DNA of 24,000 nucleotides from an uncultured Rhodospirillaceae bacterium (GTDB lineage Bacteria > Pseudomonadota > Alphaproteobacteria > UBA8366 > GCA-2717185): assembly GCA_964386465.1 (NCBI GenBank), contig CAYLTU010000006.1:5781-29780 (forward strand), given 5' to 3'. Made by a program: the position numbers and the translations under genes. Below, in pieces: positions 2,633 to 21,903 of the stretch; positions within the stretch are counted from its first letter, which is position 1, and each line of letters begins with the position of its first letter. Under the pieces are notes generated by a model. The model did no database searches, was not told the DNA's origin, and was given only the letters and a program-made list of their open reading frames with translations.

Positions 2633-3695
2633 CGCGCGCTTCGTCCTTGTCATCCAAACCCGCATTGAGCAAGTCCGGTTGAACTGCCTGTCCAGCCGGT
2701 GCTTCGAGGCCCAGATACCGCCAGCCCTGCAACGTCAGCATCCGGCCGCGCGGCGTACGCTGCACGAAACCGCGCTGAATGAGATAGGGTTCGATAACCT
2801 CTTCGATCGCATCGCGCTGCTCGGCCAGCGCAACCGCCAGCGTGTCTGCGCCGACAGGGCCGCCGCCGTAATTTTCCGCCATGCAGGTCAGAAAGCGCCT
2901 GTCCATCGCATCGAGACCCTCGACATCGACTTCGAGCCGGAGCAGAGATTTGTCGGCGATCGCCGCATCGACCGTCGATTGATTTTCGACCATCGCAAAG
3001 TCCCGGACCCGGCGCAGCAGTCGTCCAGCGATCCGCGGCGTGCCCCGGCTCCGCCGCGCGATCTCTTGTGCACCGTCGGGCGTAAGGTCCATTTTCAAGA
3101 CGCGCGCGCCCCGTTCCACGATACTTTGCAGGTCTTCGATGCCGTAGAAGTTCATCCGGAGCGGAATGCCGAACCGCTCGCGCAGCGGCGTGGTGATCAA
3201 GCCCGTGCGGGTCGTCGCGCCGACCAGGGTAAAAGGCGGCAAATCGATTCGGATCGATCGCGCCGCAGGTCCTTCCCCGATAATTAAATCAAGCTGGAAG
3301 TCCTCCATCGCCGGATAGAGAATTTCTTCGACCGCCGGGTGCAGCCGGTGAATTTCATCGATGAACAACACGTCCCGCGGCTGCAAATTCGTAAGCAATG
3401 CGGCCAGATCGCCCGCCTTCGCCAGCACGGGGCCGGATGTCGCCCGGAAGCTCACGCCGAGCTCCCGCGAGACGATCTGCGCGAGAGTCGTTTTCCCAAG
3501 ACCCGGCGGTCCGAAAAAAATCGTGTGGTCGAGCGCTTCATTTCGGCTTCTCGCCGCTTGGATGAAGACCGACAGGTTCTCCCGGACGCCCGATTGCCCG
3601 ATGAACTCGGCGAGGGTCTGCGGCCGCAGCGATGCTTCATCGATATCCGCATCGACGGCATCCGGCGCGACAACACGGCTTGCCGGTTCGTTCAT
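2625..3695 (-). CDS. ruvB: Holliday junction branch-migration ATPase RuvB
   Basis: 356 aa. Walker A motif [20 protein letters not shown], and the N-terminal [12 protein letters not shown] are typical of RuvB. The start overlaps the ruvA stop by ATGA (3692..3695). Confidence 0.95.
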
Positions 3696-4294
3696 TGCGT
3701 CATTTCCTTAAGGCCGAACCGGATCAGGGATTCGAGGGGTGCTCCCTCACCCAGTTGCTTGCCGGCCTTGGCGATTACGTTGAATGCGTCGCCCCTTGAA
3801 TAGCCGAGATTGACCAGGGCGGAAATCGCCTCTTCGCTATCCGCATGCGTTGCTGTGGTAATTTCCGCGATCCCGGCACTGCCAAGGGCCATGCCGCCGA
3901 CCTTGTCGCGCAGTTCGGTGACTATACGGCTCGCCAATTTTGGGCCCACGCCGTTCGCGCGGGCAACGGCCGTCTTGTCTTGCGCGGCAACTGCTTGGAC
4001 CAATTCGTCGGCCGTCAATGCGGAAAGGATTGCGAGCCCGACGCGCGCGCCAACACCTTGCACTGTCGTCAACAAACGGAACCAGGCCCGCTCGGCCGTA
4101 TCGATGAAACCGTATAGGTGGATATGATCTTCGCGGACATGGGTTTCGACCTCGACCCGGATCGCTTCGCCGACCGCTGGCATTCGCCCGAGTGTCCGCG
4201 ACGAGCAGAACACGAGGTAGCCGACACCGCCGACGTCGATTACCGCGAAGTCTTCCGCCAACTCGCCCACAATTCCGGAGAGCCGCGCGATCAT
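3692..4294 (-). CDS. ruvA: Holliday junction DNA-binding protein RuvA
   Basis: The true start is MIARLSGIV... at 4294. The ORF-track start at 4399 adds 35 Arg/Gly/Cys-rich residues. The ATG at 4294..4292 overlaps the ruvC TGA at 4293..4291 (ATGA). HhH regions ([27 protein letters not shown]) are present. Confidence 0.9.
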
Positions 4295-4794
4295 TGTGCC
4301 GCCGCGGCCTTGTTCAATCGCCTGGCGGTCTCCCCGTAATGCGCGTGGCAGATCGCCACGGCCAGCGCATCCGCGGCATCCGCGCTCGAAAAGACACAAC
4401 CGGGCAAAATGCGGCCGACCATCATCTGGACCTGCTCTTTTGCGGCGTGCCCAGCGCCGACGACCGATTTCTTTATCCGGTTGGCCGAATATTCCGCGAC
4501 CGGAAGTCCGGCGAGCGCCGGGGCGAGAACGACGACGCCGCGGGCCTCACCAAGACGCAGCGTCGTTCCCGGATTTTTGTTCACAAACGTTTCTTCGACA
4601 GCCGCTTCATCCGGGTCGAAATCGGCCAAAACACGAGCAAGTCCTTCGTGGAGGTCGCGGAGCCGACCGGCGAGATCCTGCTTCGGATCCGGCGAAACCG
4701 TGCCGTCCGCCACATAGGTCAGCCGATTGGCGTGGACGTCGATGACACCCCACCCCGTGTTGCGAAGTCCCGGATCCAGTCCGATTAACCGCAT
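4291..4794 (-). CDS. ruvC: Crossover junction endodeoxyribonuclease RuvC
   Basis: 167 aa. [18 protein letters not shown]... is the RuvC N-terminal catalytic motif, and the C-terminal [11 protein letters not shown] is also typical. Confidence 0.9.
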
Positions 4795-8449: not shown

Positions 8450-8620
8450 AAAAGAAGTTGGCGGCGCCGCAACGGCCGTCGGCTAGGTCAAACCCTCAAG
8501 GACCTGATTTAACAGGTGGGCGCCGTGTACCGAAACCAGGGCTCCGACAGTGACAGCTCCCTAAGAGCACTTATCGCCCCTGGGGTATGGTGGCCTAACG
8601 TACCGTGCAGCAACCGCCAA
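8450..8620 (-). ncRNA. ssrS: 6S RNA (RNA polymerase-sigma70 regulatory RNA)
   Basis: A 194-nt non-coding gap sits between zapA and ygfA on the same strand, matching the known synteny. On the minus strand, 5' TTGGCGGTTGCTGCACGG (8620..8603) pairs with 3' CCGTTGCGGCGCCGCCAA (8474..8457). That is 7 perfect closing pairs plus about 10 more with G-U pairs and one bulge. Pairing continues with TTAGGCCA / TGACCTAG, giving the long irregular helix expected for 6S. A U-rich tract (CUUCUUUUC) follows the closing stem. The ends are approximate. Confidence 0.7.
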
Positions 8621-16497: not shown

Positions 16498-17310
16498 ATG
16501 GCGTTGCGATCCGCGATCATTAACGTCATGGCCATGGCCGCGGACAAAGCCGGCCGCCGGCTGGTCCGCGATTTCGGCGAGGTCGAACAGCTGCAGGTGA
16601 GCCGTAAAGGCCCAGCCGATTTCGTATCGAGCGCGGATATGCGCGCGGAAAAGATACTGCGCGAATCTCTGAGCAACGCACATCCTGATTTCGGCATGTT
16701 AATGGAGGAATCCGGTGAGACGGCTGGAAAGGACGACCGCCACCGCTGGATCGTCGATCCACTCGACGGCACGACGAATTTTCTCCACGGCCTGCCCCAT
16801 TTTTGTATTTCGATCGCACTGGAGCGGGATGGTCAGGTCGTAGCCGGAATTGTCTACGATCCAGTCAAGGACGAGCTGTTCTGGGCCGAACGCGGCCTTG
16901 GAGCCTACGTAAATGACAGGCGCCTTCGGGTCTCCGGCCGCGGACGGATGCGCGATGCGGTTTTCGCGACTGGAATTCCCTTTCTGGGAATCCAGGACGG
17001 TCCGGGGCACGAGATGTTTCTCGGGCAGCTTGGCAGCGTCATGGCAGAGTGCGCGGGCGTGCGACGGTTCGGATCCGCCGCTCTGGATCTCGCCTATGTC
17101 GCCGCAGGACGTTACGACGGATACTGGGAGAACGGGCTCAACCCGTGGGACGTCGCTGCAGGGGTCTTGCTGGTCCGGGAAGCCGGCGGTCAGGCGTCCG
17201 ACATATCCGGTCGACGCTATGAGTTGGGCGCACCCGATATTTGCGTCGGAAACGAGCAGCTTCATCAGCCTCTACGCAAACTGCTGCGCGGCGCGGCGCG
17301 CCCTGACTAG
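16498..17310 (+). CDS. suhB: Inositol monophosphatase family protein (SuhB-like)
   Basis: 270 aa. Motifs WIVDPLDGTTNFLHG and the C-terminal WDVAAG are typical of the IMPase family. Confidence 0.85.
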   Translation: MALRSAIINVMAMAADKAGRRLVRDFGEVEQLQVSRKGPADFVSSADMRAEKILRESLSNAHPDFGMLMEESGETAGKDDRHRWIVDPLDGTTNFLHGLPHFCISIALERDGQVVAGIVYDPVKDELFWAERGLGAYVNDRRLRVSGRGRMRDAVFATGIPFLGIQDGPGHEMFLGQLGSVMAECAGVRRFGSAALDLAYVAAGRYDGYWENGLNPWDVAAGVLLVREAGGQASDISGRRYELGAPDICVGNEQLHQPLRKLLRGAARPD

Positions 17311-17408
17311 CGGTTGTCTGCCGTTCAGCCCTGAGCTATGGTCGGGGCGTAATAAAATTTGCGCAATTCGCGCGATAAAACACAAACGGATAGGCTTCCG
17401 AATTGGAA

Positions 17409-18542
17409 ATGTGTGGTCTGGATTTGGGACGGCACCGGGGCATTCTAACTTGGCGAGTTGGCGTCTTCGCTTGTACGCTCGTGGTGGCGGTATTACCGGC
17501 TAGCGCTCAGCAGCAATATTACGTATTCCCGCCAGGTTCTAGCCGCCCCAGTGTCATCGTCGATTTAGGCGTATTGGACAAGCTTGGGCCGCAACCGACC
17601 CTGCCGGGTATGCTTCGGTCGGGCCGTGCGCCTGTCGCCCCCGCGCCGAAAAGTGGCTTGCTTCCGCCACCGGCGGAACCGCCACGATCGCAACTTTCAC
17701 TGCCGCGGAGCTTCGCCTCGCGAGGCGCACCGCCGCGGCCGTCGCAGCGGGCAGCTTTAAGTGCGCCTCCGCCCCGACCCAGCATTGCACCACCGCCACA
17801 ACCGAAACGGCCCTCTTCCGCGGCGCTGGCTCCAAAGGCGACCGCGCGTCCGAAGGCGATGCCGCCGCCAAAAATCGCGCCCCCAACGCCAAGACCTCCG
17901 GCGGCGACCAGTGCTGCGCGCGCTATGCCGAAGGCGCCGCCGCCAAAGCGTGCACCGGTTCCTCCAAGGCCCGCCGTTCCGATAGTCGCGAATCCCACAC
18001 CCCCCGCACCCAAAACGGCGATGGCAACGCCCGCCGCCCCTAAGGCGAGACCACCAAGACCCGCCGCGGTACCGCCGCCGCCGGTCACACCTCGCGTACC
18101 GCCACCGCCGCGCAAGACAGTGTCGGGCATCGCCAAACCTCGGCCAAGCGTTCCGTCGCCGCCGAAAGCCACCCCCAAGACGCCGGCGCCGCAGGTTGCG
18201 TCAGTCCCACCGCCGACCAATACGGATGCGGATGGAACAATCCGGATTGGTTTCAATTCTACCTCGTCGGATTTACCGTCCTCCGCGACGGGCGCGCTGG
18301 ACAAACTCGTCGCTCGGATGAGCAGCGACACGGATATTCGCGTCCAGCTGCATGGTTACGCGAGTGGGGCGAGCGATTCACCGAGCCAAGCCCGCCGCCT
18401 TTCTCTCTTCCGTGCGCTGTCGGTGCGGACCTATCTGATGAAGAAAGGTATCCGCAGCACTCGTATCGATGTGCGTGCGCTTGGAAAAAAGGCCGACGGC
18501 GAGGACGCCAATCGCGTCGACGTAATTATCCGAAGATCGTGA
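17409..18542 (+). CDS. Secreted Pro/Ala-rich protein with C-terminal OmpA-like domain
   Basis: Signal-peptide-like N-terminus (WRVGVFACTLVVAVLPASA-QQ). About 230 aa of Pro/Ala/Lys-rich low complexity follows. The C-terminus IRVQLHGYASGASDSPSQARRLSLFRALSVRTYLMKKGI...RVDVIIR matches the OmpA_C pattern (NxxLSxxRAxxV), but GYAS replaces the canonical GHTD. The ORF track starts at the TTG at 17403, and the first ATG is 17409. Confidence 0.7.
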   Translation: MCGLDLGRHRGILTWRVGVFACTLVVAVLPASAQQQYYVFPPGSSRPSVIVDLGVLDKLGPQPTLPGMLRSGRAPVAPAPKSGLLPPPAEPPRSQLSLPRSFASRGAPPRPSQRAALSAPPPRPSIAPPPQPKRPSSAALAPKATARPKAMPPPKIAPPTPRPPAATSAARAMPKAPPPKRAPVPPRPAVPIVANPTPPAPKTAMATPAAPKARPPRPAAVPPPPVTPRVPPPPRKTVSGIAKPRPSVPSPPKATPKTPAPQVASVPPPTNTDADGTIRIGFNSTSSDLPSSATGALDKLVARMSSDTDIRVQLHGYASGASDSPSQARRLSLFRALSVRTYLMKKGIRSTRIDVRALGKKADGEDANRVDVIIRRS

Positions 18543-18591
18543 CCTCGGCTGTCATGGCTGCAATTGGAATTAACTACCGCCGGCGGAGGGT

Positions 18592-19752
18592 ATGATGGAC
18601 GTCCAGAGCGTGACTCAGCCCTCCCGGTATCTTACGCGCATGGCGTTCTTTCTCGGCGTCGTCGCCGCGACCGCCGCACTGCTGTTTCCCCAACTTCGCG
18701 CCGCGTTCGTCGCGAATACCGTTCTAAACGGTGTCATTCTGGGCGTTCTTTTGATCGGTATCATTCACGCGTTCAGGACGGTGACGATGCTGCGCGGCGA
18801 AATTGCCTGGATCGAAAGTTTCCGCCGCGAGAATATGGTCGTCACCAGCGCGGCGACGCCCCGGCTCCTGGCGCCGATGGCGACCATGCTGGGCGAAAGC
18901 TCGGACAAGATCAGCCTGTCGACCATCGCGATGCGCACCCTACTGGACGGAATCGCGGCACGTCTCGACGAAAGCCGCGAAATTTCCCGCTATATGATCG
19001 GATTGCTGGTTTTTCTTGGTCTTTTGGGCACGTTCTGGGGCCTTCTGGAGACTGTCCAGGCCATCGGCAGTGTCGTCGGGGGGCTGAACATCGCGGGTGC
19101 CGATCTAGGCTCCGCGTTCAACGATTTAAAGCAAGGTCTGCAGGCCCCGATCTCGGGGATGGGAACGGCGTTCAGTTCCTCTCTGTTCGGTCTCGCGGGC
19201 TCTCTTGTCCTCGGTTTTCTCGAATTGCAGGCCGGACAGGCGCAAAACAGGTTCTACAACGAGTTGGAAGAATGGCTCTCCGGCCTGACCCGGCTGGGCA
19301 GCGGCGCGATCGGCGGTATCGAAGGCGGCGACCAGTCGGTGCCCGCCTATATTCAAGCGCTCCTCGAACAAACCGCGGACGGTCTCGAAGGCATGCAGCG
19401 CGCGCTTGCCCGAAGCGAAGATAACCGAACGGATTATAGCCGCAATATATTCGAGCTAACCGAGCGTATCGGCGCCCTCTCCAATCAGATGGCGACCGAA
19501 CAGAAGCTGATGCTTAAGCTAGCGGAAAGCCAGTCGGAACTTACGCCGATTTTGGGCAAGCTTGCCGAATCGGGCGGACACTCGTCGTCGGATGAAGTCA
19601 CGCATGCCTATCTGCGAAATATCGAAACCTACTTGAGTCGCATCCACGAGGATACAGGACCCGGCCGCGCCGATGCTGTTCAGGAAATTCGCAATGAAAT
19701 CAGATTGCTGGCGCGTACGATCGCGGCATTGGCCGAAGAACCGGAACGCTAG
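18592..19752 (+). CDS. MotA/TolQ/ExbB-family channel protein, 4 TM, with about 170-aa helical C-terminal tail
   Basis: GGAGGG lies 4 nt upstream of the ATG. LVFLGLLGTFWGLLETVQAI aligns with TolQ APFIGLFGTVYGIMNSFQSI in this same window. GMGTAFSSSLFGLAGSLVLGFL aligns with TolQ GIAEALFATALGLVAAIPAVVA. There are two N-terminal TMs, a loop of about 80 aa, two core TMs, then a long helical tail (…ELTERIGALSNQMATEQKLMLKLAESQSEL…). Confidence 0.8.
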   Translation: MMDVQSVTQPSRYLTRMAFFLGVVAATAALLFPQLRAAFVANTVLNGVILGVLLIGIIHAFRTVTMLRGEIAWIESFRRENMVVTSAATPRLLAPMATMLGESSDKISLSTIAMRTLLDGIAARLDESREISRYMIGLLVFLGLLGTFWGLLETVQAIGSVVGGLNIAGADLGSAFNDLKQGLQAPISGMGTAFSSSLFGLAGSLVLGFLELQAGQAQNRFYNELEEWLSGLTRLGSGAIGGIEGGDQSVPAYIQALLEQTADGLEGMQRALARSEDNRTDYSRNIFELTERIGALSNQMATEQKLMLKLAESQSELTPILGKLAESGGHSSSDEVTHAYLRNIETYLSRIHEDTGPGRADAVQEIRNEIRLLARTIAALAEEPER

Positions 19753-19855
19753 GAGCCTCTCCGGTCGATACAGTTCGTAAGAATTACTCGGACAGGCTCC
19801 TGGTCGACGCAGAAGGGTCGGATGAGCGCAAGACGTAAGAAGGGACGATAAACCG

Positions 19856-21121
19856 ATGCCAGCTCAGGCGCGGCGTGCGCGAAGTGCGACGAACATCTGG
19901 CCCGGTTTCGTCGATGCGTTGGCGACGCTTCTCATGGTCATCATCTTTCTGCTGATGATCTTCGTCGTCGCGCAATTCTATCTCAATGACGCGCTCATAG
20001 GACGCGATAAGGCCCTGGACAAGCTCAACCAGCAAGTCGTCGAACTTGCCGAGCTGCTTTCCCTGGAACGCCGCGAGAGTCGCGATCTCCGCAACAACGT
20101 GGCGCAGATTTCAACGGAGCTGCAAAGTTCTTTGGCGGAACGGGACAATCTTTCGACACAGCTCAACAATTTGTTGGGGATAAAAGCCAATTTCGACGCG
20201 GCTCAATCGGAACTTGCCGAAATTCGGAAGGAACGCGAGACCCTTGCCGCCGAACGCGCAGCCCTTTCGGGTGAGTTGGAGGAAACCTATAAGCGACTGG
20301 AGGACGCGCACAAGACGATAACCGTGGACAAGGAGACGATAGAAGTCCAACTCTCGAAACTGGCGACCTTGCAACAGGACATCGTGGCGCTTCAGGCCTT
20401 GCGCGACGAACTCAGCAGCAGAATCGGTGCGGCGATGCGGGCCGCGGAATCGAAGGCCAAATCGCTTAGCGAGGAGCGTAAAGTGTCGCTTGCAGTGAAA
20501 GCCCAGGTTGCGCTGTTGAACCGCCAGTTGGCGGAAATTCGCAGGCAAGTGGCGACGCTAAACAAAGCATTGGATGCCTCGGAGGTGCGGGACAAGGAAT
20601 CACAGGTTAAGATAGCCAATCTCGGGCAGCGCCTGAACGCCGCCCTGGCAAGCAAGGTTCAGGAACTTGCACGCTATCGGTCGGAGTTTTTTGGACGACT
20701 GCGAAAGGTCCTCGGTAACCGGCGCGATATCCAGATCGTCGGCGACCGGTTTGTTTTCCAATCCGAAGTACTGTTTGCGTCGGGTTCCGATATTCTCGCG
20801 CCGGCCGGCCGGCTTCAGATGGCGAAACTGGGCAAGACGCTGACGGCGATAACGGCCACCATTCCGCCCGACATCAATTGGATTCTGCGGGTCGATGGCC
20901 ATACCGACAGGGTGCCGATCAAGACGAAGCGGTTTCCGTCGAATTGGGAACTGTCCGCCGCCCGAGCTATCTCGGTGGTCAAGTTTCTGATGGCGCAAGG
21001 CATTTCGGCAAATCGTTTCGCGGCGGCCGGTTTCGGTGAATTTCAACCACTCGACGCCCGCAATGATGAATTCGCCTACCGTAGAAACCGGCGCATCGAA
21101 CTCAAACTCGACCAGCGCTAG
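19856..21121 (+). CDS. MotB-like protein: TM with conserved Asp, about 230-aa coiled coil, C-terminal OmpA/MotB peptidoglycan-binding domain
   Basis: The N-terminus [31 protein letters not shown] carries Asp20 (codon 19913..19915), in the position of the MotB/TolR proton-binding Asp. Compare TolR PFVDVMLVLLIVF in this window. Residues ~50-285 are heptad-rich ([36 protein letters not shown]...). The C-terminus [10 protein letters not shown]...[11 protein letters not shown]...[16 protein letters not shown]...[10 protein letters not shown] is a canonical OmpA_C/MotB domain. Confidence 0.8.
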
Positions 21122-21206: not shown

Positions 21207-21431
21207 GTGAAAAAAGAAATCCACCCCGAATATCATGAGATTACCGTCGAAATGACGGACGGGACCACTTACAAGACGCGCTCGACGTGGGGTGAACCCG
21301 GCGCAACGCTCAAGCTTGAAATCGATCCCTCTTCGCATCCGGCGTGGACCGGCGTGCATCGCCTGATCGATTCCGGTGGCCAGCTCGCCAAGTTCAATAA
21401 GCGCTTTGAGGGTTTTGGGCTGAAGTCGTAA
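21207..21431 (+). CDS. rpmE: 50S ribosomal protein L31
   Basis: A GTG start at 21207 is preceded by GGGAG (21195..21199). The product (V/M)[28 protein letters not shown]...HPAWTG is the L31 signature. The ORF-track start at 21036 overlaps the preceding gene and adds non-L31 residues. Confidence 0.9.
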
Positions 21432-21903
21432 GGGGCCTTAAATCCGGCTTTTCCCCGGCAGGCAGGCGTACCGGTTTGCCGCCGGCGGCCAATCGAACAC
21501 CAATTTGACTTTCCAGACGGTTGACCCTGCAATAAAGGTCATAACTGCGCTGCAGTAAGGCGCGAAGCTGCGGCGGCAAATGATCCGCCTGCCCCGTTTC
21601 GTTATCCAGACAGACCGCCTGGCCCGATAGCCTGTAAACCCTCGACGCGCCCTGTGCCGGTGTCAGTTCCTTACTGTGTACCGCTTTTTGCGCCAGGATC
21701 CAGGCCATGACCTGGGTCAACCGCGTCGTAAGGCGCATCGTTTCGAGCGTAAAATCGAGGTAGTCGGGTTTGCTCTGCGCATCCAGGGACCATTGCCGCC
21801 GCGCTGCCGCGATATAGTTGCGGGCCTCGACCAGCAACGAAAACGCTTCATCATGCAAAGCGGAGAAGTATGTCGGCGTTACGCTACGGTCCATCTTGCC
21901 CAA
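21394..21903 (-). CDS. rcdA: DUF1465 family protein (RcdA-like proteolysis adaptor)
   Basis: 169 aa. The core [22 protein letters not shown] matches the DUF1465 signature (E.MRLTTRLMQ..SWLL.QRAV) whose founding member is Caulobacter RcdA. The N-terminal [11 protein letters not shown] is also typical. The 3' end overlaps convergent rpmE by 38 nt. Confidence 0.6.

Follow-up and report, generated by a model that had tools for sequence, protein, structure and literature searches.

Which machine is encoded by three adjacent genes lying between suhB and rpmE in an uncultured Rhodospirillaceae bacterium? The locus belongs to a stretch of 24,000 nucleotides (contig CAYLTU010000006.1 of assembly GCA_964386465.1), referred to here at its whole length as the window, and the genes, designated g1, g2 and g3, are three co-directional + strand open reading frames (ORFs) bounded by suhB (16498-17310) upstream and rpmE (21207-21431) downstream. 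The g1 gene (17409-18542; ORF and Pfam OmpA match) encodes a Pro-rich secreted protein whose C-terminal domain is OmpA-like but divergent, g2 (18592-19752) a four-transmembrane (TM) A-subunit-like protein of the MotA/ExbB/TolQ/ZorA superfamily, recognized through Pfam, PADLOC and Foldseek, and g3 (19856-21121) a B-subunit-like protein that belongs to NCBIfam NF006543 and lies downstream of g2. MotAB, ExbBD, TolQR, AglRQS, GldLM and ZorAB are the known 5:2 ion-driven motors, each powering a distinct envelope machine, and a first-pass annotation had described the three genes as an uncharacterised stator-like module outside all such systems. The module is a distinct, widespread and mis-annotated branch of the 5:2 motor superfamily, mechanistically uncharacterised and not categorically new. 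The explanation that we favour, and hold to be probable by a modest degree, is that g2-g3 constitute a non-flagellar, ion-driven 5:2-type complex of the inner membrane, anchored to peptidoglycan, with a housekeeping role in the envelope, at the pole or in division.

Stator-like features of the g2-g3 pair

The stator-like nature of the g2-g3 pair is supported because the fold of g2 matches ExbB, TolQ and ZorA, g3 carries a MotB-type domain, and the candidate ion-path residues of both are conserved. Four hydrophobic segments were found in g2 (residues 17-35, 40-58, 134-152 and 192-210), with a charge distribution that favours an N-in, MotA-like topology, and the predicted layout comprises a cytoplasmic loop of ~75 residues, a periplasmic TM3-TM4 loop of ~35 residues and a cytoplasmic tail of 175 residues. 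The channel core, delimited by conservation (18991-19227, + strand as are all module features below unless stated), runs from TM3 (LGLLGTFWGL, containing Thr147) through the periplasmic loop to TM4 (GMGTAFSSSLFGLAGS). Among 82 g2 orthologues spanning 35-90% identity, T147, S197, G143, G146 and P186 were conserved in 82/82 and S195 in 80/82; the equivalence of these Thr/Ser residues to the Thr residues of TolQ/ExbB is a matter of motif alignment only. In fact, the first-pass annotation had reported that both channel motifs align residue for residue with the TolQ encoded in the same window, which could not be reproduced: BLASTP recovered the single motif GLLGT(x)G (13/39 identities, E=0.002), hhalign aligned 30 columns at 23% probability, and the second motif (AP...T/S...GL.A) was matched by eye only and needed an indel.

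Against NCBIfam at E<=0.1, g2 matched only ZorA_2 (E=1.2e-5, 24.5 bits versus a cut-off of 100) and ZorA_4 (16.4 versus 500), no MotA, TolQ or ExbB model being retrieved at this threshold. Additionally, PADLOC models of ZorA1 (E=2.2e-11) and ZorA3 (~1e-11) were matched, the ZorA match being partial (41 bits, profile positions 105-228 of 683). In a Foldseek comparison with the Protein Data Bank (PDB), every one of the top 49 matches was a chain of ExbB, TolQ, ZorA or MotA; TM-scores normalised to the target reached 0.60, and ExbB, TolQ and ZorA were the closest folds. When a diverse g2 profile (alignment A3, 63 members) was searched against PDB sequences, the Shewanella type I ZorA chain 8vvn_C (E=9e-4) was the sole motor subunit retrieved, standing among coiled-coil noise. 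By sequence, g2 appears to be a very divergent A-subunit-like member of the MotA/ExbB/TolQ/ZorA superfamily, nearer to ZorA than to MotA, TolQ or ExbB.

The cytoplasmic tail of g2 (19228-19752) is rich in heptads, with a periodicity of z=7.3 versus shuffles over residues 213-386, and ends in EIRLLARTIAALAEE, a motif conserved in the alignment of close homologues (A1). AlphaFold2 predicted helices at residues 172-238, 250-327 and 334-382, with Gly-rich, low-confidence breaks at ~234-255 and 327-334. The four TM segments and the extra helical C-terminus, put at about 170 residues in the first reading, were both recovered. The length of the tail varies through internal repeats, and homologues reach 646 aa; the longer ones differ only by longer tails, and no further Pfam domain was found fused to them. 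Long tails of 485-614 aa occur in six homologues (P0032, P0241, P0242, P0275, P0298 and P0357) and are built of a repeated unit of ~30 residues, xxTHLRNIExYLxRIxEExxxGR.

Regarding g3, the protein belongs to NCBIfam NF006543 (PRK09039.1-2, 'peptidoglycan -binding protein'; 465.5 bits versus a cut-off of 305), a family name that is no functional assignment. A single TM segment (19904-19975; conservation, Kyte-Doolittle hydropathy 3.12) follows an Arg-rich cytoplasmic N-terminus and contains Asp20, whose codon GAT lies at 19913-19915. In a set of 72 aligned orthologues, S. meliloti included, W15 and D20 were conserved in 71/71, and P16 in 70/71; D351 and R370, which belong to the peptidoglycan site, were retained in 71/72. 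The C-terminal domain (20729-21121), assigned by Pfam OmpA, PDB profile and Foldseek, scored 52.3 bits (E=7.8e-14) and presents the GHTD...NWELSAARA signature. The PDB profile search ranked MotB (6ysf, 3e-20), MotS (1e-19) and PomB (2.5e-12) before Pal (4e-6), and Foldseek retrieved PA0833, MotS, DVU_2228 (MotB-like), MotB and PomB, with full-length ZorB aligned over 213-245 columns. NCBIfam models of MotD, MotS and MotB were matched through the OmpA domain, and ZorB3 was matched as well, but g3 gave no match to Pfam MotB_plug at E<=0.1 and none to the ExbD/TolR family (PF02472). Both elements that had been read in g3 at the outset, the TM Asp20 and the canonical GHTD...NWELSAARA domain, were thus borne out.

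Between the membrane and this domain extends a periplasmic coiled coil (19988-20725) with conserved ends, a variable middle and a predicted hinge at residues 192-207. Residues 45-290 contain no Pro and show heptad periodicity (z=8.4 versus shuffles), in agreement with the long heptad coil of about 230 aa proposed earlier; both coiled coils, that of the g2 tail and that of g3, are statistically real. AlphaFold2 predicted one helix continuous from the TM segment (residues 15-191) and another at 208-286, followed by the OmpA-like domain, and the low-confidence break at 192-207 falls where the alignment of the family shows 7-residue indels. Orthologues of g3 range from 342 to 645 aa, which corresponds to a coil of roughly 165-465 residues. 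That the coil is conserved at its ends but variable in between, that a hinge is predicted in it and that it is longer than the periplasm is wide all suggest a spacer rather than a ruler. The fold-back or oblique geometry that had been proposed for it is plausible given the predicted break and the variation in length.

Distribution and inheritance of the module

The g2 and g3 proteins each have >8000 database homologues. When g2 relatives were clustered at 50% identity, a threshold of E<=1e-3 left 2836 of them and the stricter E<=1e-30 left 580; among the 150 matches listed, most measure ~350-420 aa. Gene order was examined by tblastn in 80 loci, covering Rhodospirillales, Acetobacteraceae, Magnetospirillum, a 'Rickettsiales' metagenome-assembled genome and marine clades, and in Sinorhizobium meliloti; g3 was found downstream of g2 in 77 of the 80 loci and in S. 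meliloti. The module is preceded by efp-suhB and followed by rpmE, a DUF1465 gene resembling rcdA, and hsp20. By tblastn the DUF1465 gene was detected behind the module in 7/80 loci, and it is also present in S. meliloti, whose chromosome presents the order thiE-sel1-suhB-g2-g3-ABC-rpmE-DUF1465. The place of g2-g3 in the thiE/efp-suhB ... rpmE-rcdA neighbourhood is kept from Rhodospirillales to Sinorhizobium. Additionally, homologues are numerous in Rhizobiaceae, and the flagellated Magnetospirillum and Sinorhizobium carry the family too. No flagellar, Ton/Tol-partner or zorC-G genes adjoin the module in the window, the 80 loci or S. meliloti, where its neighbours are housekeeping genes only.

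These data support the view that g2-g3 belong to the Alphaproteobacterial core genome and are vertically inherited. No relative was confirmed in viral contigs, and matches in the plasmid collection were restricted to five non-mobilizable Sinorhizobium/Shinella records of 3.5-4.6 Mb, which would fit chromosomes deposited under the heading of plasmids. Synteny, absence from viral contigs and ordinary GC content (0.57-0.64 in the module versus 0.54-0.64 across the window, with no island signal) led us to reject a mobile or defence origin of the module. The first-pass proposal of a conserved core function rather than a mobile island is upheld by the synteny with efp, suhB and rpmE in ~80 loci and S. 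meliloti. On the other hand, the expectation that all three genes travel together holds for the g2-g3 order but not for g1, which is not obligate: its OmpA part was found by tblastn directly upstream of g2 in 64/80 loci, and in more by eye, and it is absent from five loci in which suhB abuts g2 (L022, L027, L028, L062 and L075) and from S. meliloti.

The S. meliloti locus (L081, CP090106.1, 3.72 Mb) is filed in PLSDB as plasmid 'pSymB', but both its size and its housekeeping genes (purE, thiE, suhB and rpmE) suggest a chromosome. It carries, between thiE and suhB, a gene for a 381-aa Sel1-repeat protein (3436-4581, + strand) and, between g3 and rpmE, a gene for an ABC ATPase, neither of which has a counterpart in the window.

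Orthologues in Komagataeibacter hansenii

The only family members for which experimental data were found are MotA and MotB of Komagataeibacter hansenii (Jacek et al. 2018, 2019), a species without flagellar genes (PMC6570709). The 'motA' product, of 348 aa, has four TM helices and the 'motB' product measures 321 aa (PMC6570709, PMC6315621), so that both are shorter than g2 and g3, and no g1 equivalent is mentioned. The motA primer encodes the start VTRPTTY, its GTG codon being read as Met, and the start of the family is MTRPxRYL; the motB primers encode a MARRSRR start and an ...EFRLTDR end followed by a stop codon, and the g3 ending specific to Acetobacteraceae is NRRIELRLTDR, likewise followed by a stop. 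Because these primer-encoded termini match the family- and Acetobacteraceae-specific ones, K. hansenii 'motA' and 'motB' are judged to be orthologues of g2 and g3.

Overexpression of motA/motB in K. hansenii resulted in elongated or chained cells and a looser cellulose network (PMC6570709, PMC6315621), and colony spreading was tripled (PMC6570709). C-terminal green fluorescent protein fusions of MotA and MotB were polar or bipolar (PMC6570709, PMC6315621), and the authors likened the chained or filamentous phenotype to that of E. coli mutants implicating TolA and Pal in outer-membrane invagination (PMC6315621). According to secondary accounts, disruptions of motA, motB and motAB in strain ATCC 53582 were viable and lost colony spreading and movement, and the mutants yielded less cellulose (from 6.28 to 1.36-1.73 in the yield column of a review) in the form of thinner fibres (PMC8873821, PMC7347698). 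These phenotypes point to a role linked to the envelope, the pole or division over flagellar rotation, nutrient import or phage defence.

The studies in question were aimed at the material properties of cellulose, not at mechanism. Literature searches for a characterised homologue led to the Komagataeibacter papers only, and the family is not treated in the papers examined on MotAB evolution, 5:2 motors, S. meliloti Rgs/Tol, Rhodospirillum rubrum PapS and alpha-proteobacterial signature proteins. Therefore, the word uncharacterised, as first applied to the module, stands insofar as no molecular function is established, but it has to be qualified by the overexpression, localisation and, as relayed by secondary sources, disruption phenotypes of the K. 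hansenii orthologues (PMC6570709, PMC6315621, PMC8873821).

The secreted protein g1

The likelier start of g1 is the ATG at 17409, rather than the TTG at 17403 chosen in the first reading. The protein opens with a predicted Sec signal peptide (MCGLDLGRHRGILTWRVGVFACTLVVAVLPASA, 17409-17507), recognized by its hydrophobic segment and by an AxA-Q pattern that recurs among orthologues; cleavage would take place before QQQ (...PASA-QQQ). Right behind it, most full-length orthologues present the motif V-x-V-D-x-S-V-L-D/E-x-L-G-x-x-P-T-L-P, which corresponds in the window to PSVIVDLGVLDKLGPQPTLPGML (17547-17615), a candidate partner-binding peptide. A Pro/Ala-rich linker follows (17619-18212), defined by its Pro content and by in-frame orthologues: Pro amounts to 31% of residues 41-280, and among orthologues the length of the linker varies and one reading frame is kept from the signal peptide through the OmpA-like domain. 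No TolA/TonB domain was matched in g1 by Pfam or NCBIfam. The signal peptide with its AxA-Q pattern and the continuous frame lead to the prediction that g1 is a soluble periplasmic protein, not one anchored in the manner of TolA/TonB, which was the type of anchor against which its N-terminus had first been read.

The OmpA-like domain of g1 (18243-18542) scored 43.1 bits with the Pfam hidden Markov model (HMM) PF00691 versus a cut-off of 27.2 (E=5.7e-11), and the Pro-rich spacer fused to a divergent OmpA domain with GYAS in place of GHTD is thus as originally described. In an alignment of ~50 orthologues, [A/G][Y/F]A stands at the GHTD position, and LSLxRA, RSTRI, DVRALG and DRVD are conserved. 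Of the two diaminopimelate-binding residues, the Arg of LSLxRA is retained (LSLFRA in the window), but every orthologue aligned has another residue (AYAxG) where GHTD has its Asp. Because of this replacement, peptidoglycan binding by g1 is uncertain and is not to be assumed.

In public gene calls on identical contigs (L082-L085, positions 664-1687), g1 is broken up, with an OmpA fragment of 74 aa and an ORF of 185-203 aa on the opposite strand in its place, a mis-calling due to the Pro-rich linker, which defeats gene callers. The corresponding 270-aa antisense ORF in the window (17519-18331, - strand) was considered as a gene and discarded, since it is the Gly-rich shadow that the Pro-rich linker casts on the other strand.

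Proposed mechanism and rival explanations

The analysis itself establishes how the domains are arranged, the topology signals, the conserved residues, the affinities in fold and HMM, and the synteny; from these data we infer a 5:2 stoichiometry, ion flow, rotation, a fixed part, a role for g1 and a cellular function, which would fit together as follows. Five g2 subunits would enclose the two TM helices contributed by a g3 dimer, and protons would pass via Asp20 of g3 and Thr147/Ser195-197 of TM3 and TM4 of g2. The two g3 chains would leave the membrane as a parallel coiled-coil stalk whose MotB-type domain would sit on peptidoglycan, making g3 the fixed part, so that ion flow would turn or switch the ring of g2 subunits, and with it their cytoplasmic loops and flexibly tethered helical tails. 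In most lineages g1 would be a soluble periplasmic accessory, bound to the complex through its conserved N-terminal peptide and reaching the wall or the outer membrane through the Pro-rich spacer and the altered OmpA-like domain.

Several observations weigh against this explanation. In Pfam, MotA_ExbB (PF01618) gave g2 only 19.4 bits (E=9e-4, residues 111-162 only), below the cut-off of 22.9; the HMM support at issue in the first-pass annotation thus falls short of the cut-off for the window protein itself, although the S. meliloti orthologue (23.9 bits) and family member P0307 (28.1 bits) pass. The profile of close g2 homologues (A1) retrieved no motor subunit from PDB sequences, and the ZorA sequence signal may be partly a coiled-coil bias; moreover, the Gly-rich breaks of the g2 tail differ from the continuous tail of ZorA. 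The AlphaFold2 monomers of g2 (pLDDT, predicted local distance difference test, 62) and g3 (pLDDT 67) are mediocre, and the best Foldseek E-value for g2, only 2e-3 and from the former model, is weak. Structural modelling covered monomers, and the stoichiometry, the Asp-Thr geometry and any contact of g1 are putative. Finally, the K. hansenii phenotypes come from applied cellulose studies, and the knock-outs through secondary sources, and could be indirect.

A narrower version, which we rate as rather unlikely while keeping it in view, would make g2-g3 a housekeeping relative of the ZorAB core, passed on vertically and working as a 5:2 motor anchored to the wall; its long periplasmic coil and tethered cytoplasmic tail would couple the state or distance of peptidoglycan to a cytoplasmic process at the pole or division site. 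Zorya defence systems could have been recruited from an ancestral envelope motor of this kind. By comparison, a Zorya-type anti-phage sensor, with effectors encoded elsewhere, has only a slender chance. The best HMM affinities of g2 (ZorA1, ZorA3, ZorA_2), the ZorB3 match of g3, the retrieval of ZorA as the sole motor subunit by sequence and the cytoplasmic helical tail would agree with it; however, all scores lie far under the curated cut-offs (24.5 versus 100 bits), zorC-G genes are not adjacent, neither viral nor true plasmid copies were found, and g3 has a 245-residue coil that ZorB lacks. Quite unlike a defence island, the module keeps one core-genome position all the way between Rhodospirillales and Rhizobiaceae. 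That the genes would encode a true, second stator of the flagellum, as the NCBI names suggest, is extremely improbable in spite of the MotA-like four-TM topology and the matches of g3 to MotD, MotS and MotB models through its OmpA domain, since g2 matched no MotA model and g3 no MotB_plug model at E<=0.1, flagellar neighbours are absent and orthologues occur in K. hansenii, whose genome lacks flagellar genes (PMC6570709). The database labels 'flagellar motor protein MotA' and 'chemotaxis protein MotB' are almost certainly wrong for this family.

The remaining alternatives concern the output of the module. In a Tol-Pal-like force transducer, the g3 coil would act like TolA domain II and g3, driven by proton motive force, would pull the Pal-like g1, a partner associated with the wall or the outer membrane, the outer membrane being tethered or invaginated at poles and septa in partial redundancy with canonical Tol. 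The long periplasmic helix of g3 would suit such a device, and so would the architecture of g1, in which a conserved N-terminal peptide, possibly a binding box, is combined with a Pro-rich spacer and an OmpA-like domain, as would the chains and filaments of overexpressing K. hansenii, compared by the authors with a TolA/Pal-linked E. coli phenotype (PMC6315621). Nevertheless, we regard it as unlikely: the fully canonical peptidoglycan site of g3 marks an anchor, not a mobile transducer, g1 has a predicted cleavable signal peptide and no TolA/TonB domain and is absent from S. meliloti and several lineages retaining g2-g3, no TolQ, TolR or ExbD model matched g2 or g3, and canonical TolQ-TolR are already present in the window. 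A passive structural tether, in which the g3 coil would join the inner membrane to peptidoglycan and g2 would be a mere scaffold performing no ion-driven work, could tolerate the highly variable coil length and would agree with the very weak similarity of g2 to functional channels. It is distinctly improbable, given the membrane-embedded Asp20 in every aligned orthologue and the invariance of Thr147, Ser197, Gly143, Gly146 and Pro186 in 82 g2 orthologues, which is hard to explain without an ion pathway. Movement of K. hansenii is coupled to cellulose extrusion, and altered spreading may result from changes in cell length and in the amount of cellulose made; both points count against a non-flagellar surface-movement motor, the function put forward by the K. 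hansenii authors ('motility-related genes'). That function is very improbable also because no gliding, adhesin or pilus partner genes were found in the loci examined and the family occurs in flagellated Magnetospirillum and Sinorhizobium, notwithstanding the tripled spreading under overexpression (PMC6570709) and the loss of spreading and movement that a secondary source reports for deletion mutants (PMC8873821).

The non-flagellar, ion-driven envelope complex that we favour offers an immediate genetic handle in the conserved Asp20 and Thr147. The family reaches many Alphaproteobacteria, including the tractable Sinorhizobium, Magnetospirillum and Komagataeibacter, and the module could explain envelope, polarity or division features specific to this class. 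Its client process, once found, would add a new function to the repertoire of 5:2 motors.

Locus organization and other features of the window

The intergenic gaps measure 98 nt (suhB-g1), 49 nt (g1-g2), 103 nt (g2-g3) and 85 nt (g3-rpmE), so that the initial description of three co-directional genes with short gaps was accurate. Promoter and terminator scans across the module gave scores at shuffle level, with no convincing separator among the three genes, and an Rfam scan gave zero matches inside it. The g2-g3 gap (19753-19855) is 103 nt long in the window, and many orthologous loci have 0-30 nt or overlapping genes at this place, S. meliloti having 2 nt; neither an RNA family nor a terminator was detected in it.

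Downstream of the module, the DUF1465 gene (21394-21903, - strand) is convergent with rpmE and overlaps its 3' end by ~38 nt. RcdA is a polar adaptor in CtrA proteolysis, and the DUF1465 gene of the window is a homologue of the Caulobacter RcdA gene (PDB 3ctw, E=2e-14). The canonical TolQ-TolR pair is separately encoded at 1008-2195, the TolR of the window scoring 105 bits. An ORF downstream of tolQ-tolR (123-998, - strand) was taken as TolA by position only and gave no Pfam match at E<=1e-3. Additionally, a 6S/SsrS RNA was identified at 8460-8616 (- strand; Rfam RF00013, 60.6 bits versus a gathering score of 46.4, the match covering the entire model).

Comparison with known 5:2 systems

Among the known systems, ZorAB (PDB 8vvn, 8qyd) shows the best HMM and PDB-sequence affinity for g2. 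As in g2, a MotA/ExbB-type TM core is followed in ZorA by a cytoplasmic helical tail, and ZorB, like g3, combines a TM Asp with an OmpA-like peptidoglycan-binding domain. However, the scores of g2 and g3 lie far under the family cut-offs, the g2 tail is short (~175 aa) and interrupted by Gly-rich linkers, and g3 carries an inserted periplasmic coiled coil of ~245 aa. Unlike Zorya, the module has no ZorC/D/E/F/G genes and occupies a syntenic core-genome position, not a defence island.

The flagellar stators MotAB, PomAB and MotPS share with the module a four-TM A subunit, the A-then-B gene order and the W/P...D pattern of the B-subunit TM segment, and MotB, MotS and PomB are the closest in sequence and fold to the peptidoglycan-binding domain of g3. 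In contrast to MotA, g2 has no MotA-family HMM match and a short cytoplasmic loop (~75 aa), and in contrast to MotB, g3 has no plug helix (no MotB_plug match), the linker being replaced by the continuous predicted helix 15-191 and coiled coil. The module also lacks the flagellar context of these stators, and members of the family occur in a genus without flagella (PMC6570709).

Like the Tol and Ton systems, the module would combine a motor in the inner membrane with a long helix in the periplasm, a spacer rich in Pro and an OmpA-like element that binds the wall; TolQ and ExbB are the closest A-subunit folds to g2 in Foldseek, and the GLLGT(x)G TM motif is common to g2 and the TolQ of the window. 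In the module, however, the coil and the peptidoglycan domain are both on the B subunit g3, which does not have the ExbD/TolR fold, and g1, unlike TolA and TonB, is predicted to be secreted rather than membrane-anchored and lacks a TolA or TonB C-terminal domain. SiiAB of Salmonella pathogenicity island 4, AglRQS and GldLM are non-flagellar MotAB-like proton-driven modules, SiiA having a MotB-like peptidoglycan-binding domain, and they adjoin their clients, namely a type I secretion system with a giant adhesin, the Glt proteins and the type IX secretion system, respectively, whereas no such client genes flank g1-g3.

HMM cut-offs and gene context support placing the module outside MotAB, Tol, Ton and Zorya. 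The first-pass statement that it fits no characterised stator system therefore holds for flagellar, Tol/Ton and Zorya membership, but it has to be amended in that g2 is closest to ZorA by sequence. Compared with all of these systems, the module brings together a ZorA-like tailed A subunit, a MotB-like anchor on a coil of ~165-465 residues and a secreted Pro-rich partner whose OmpA-like domain is altered, a combination not seen elsewhere.

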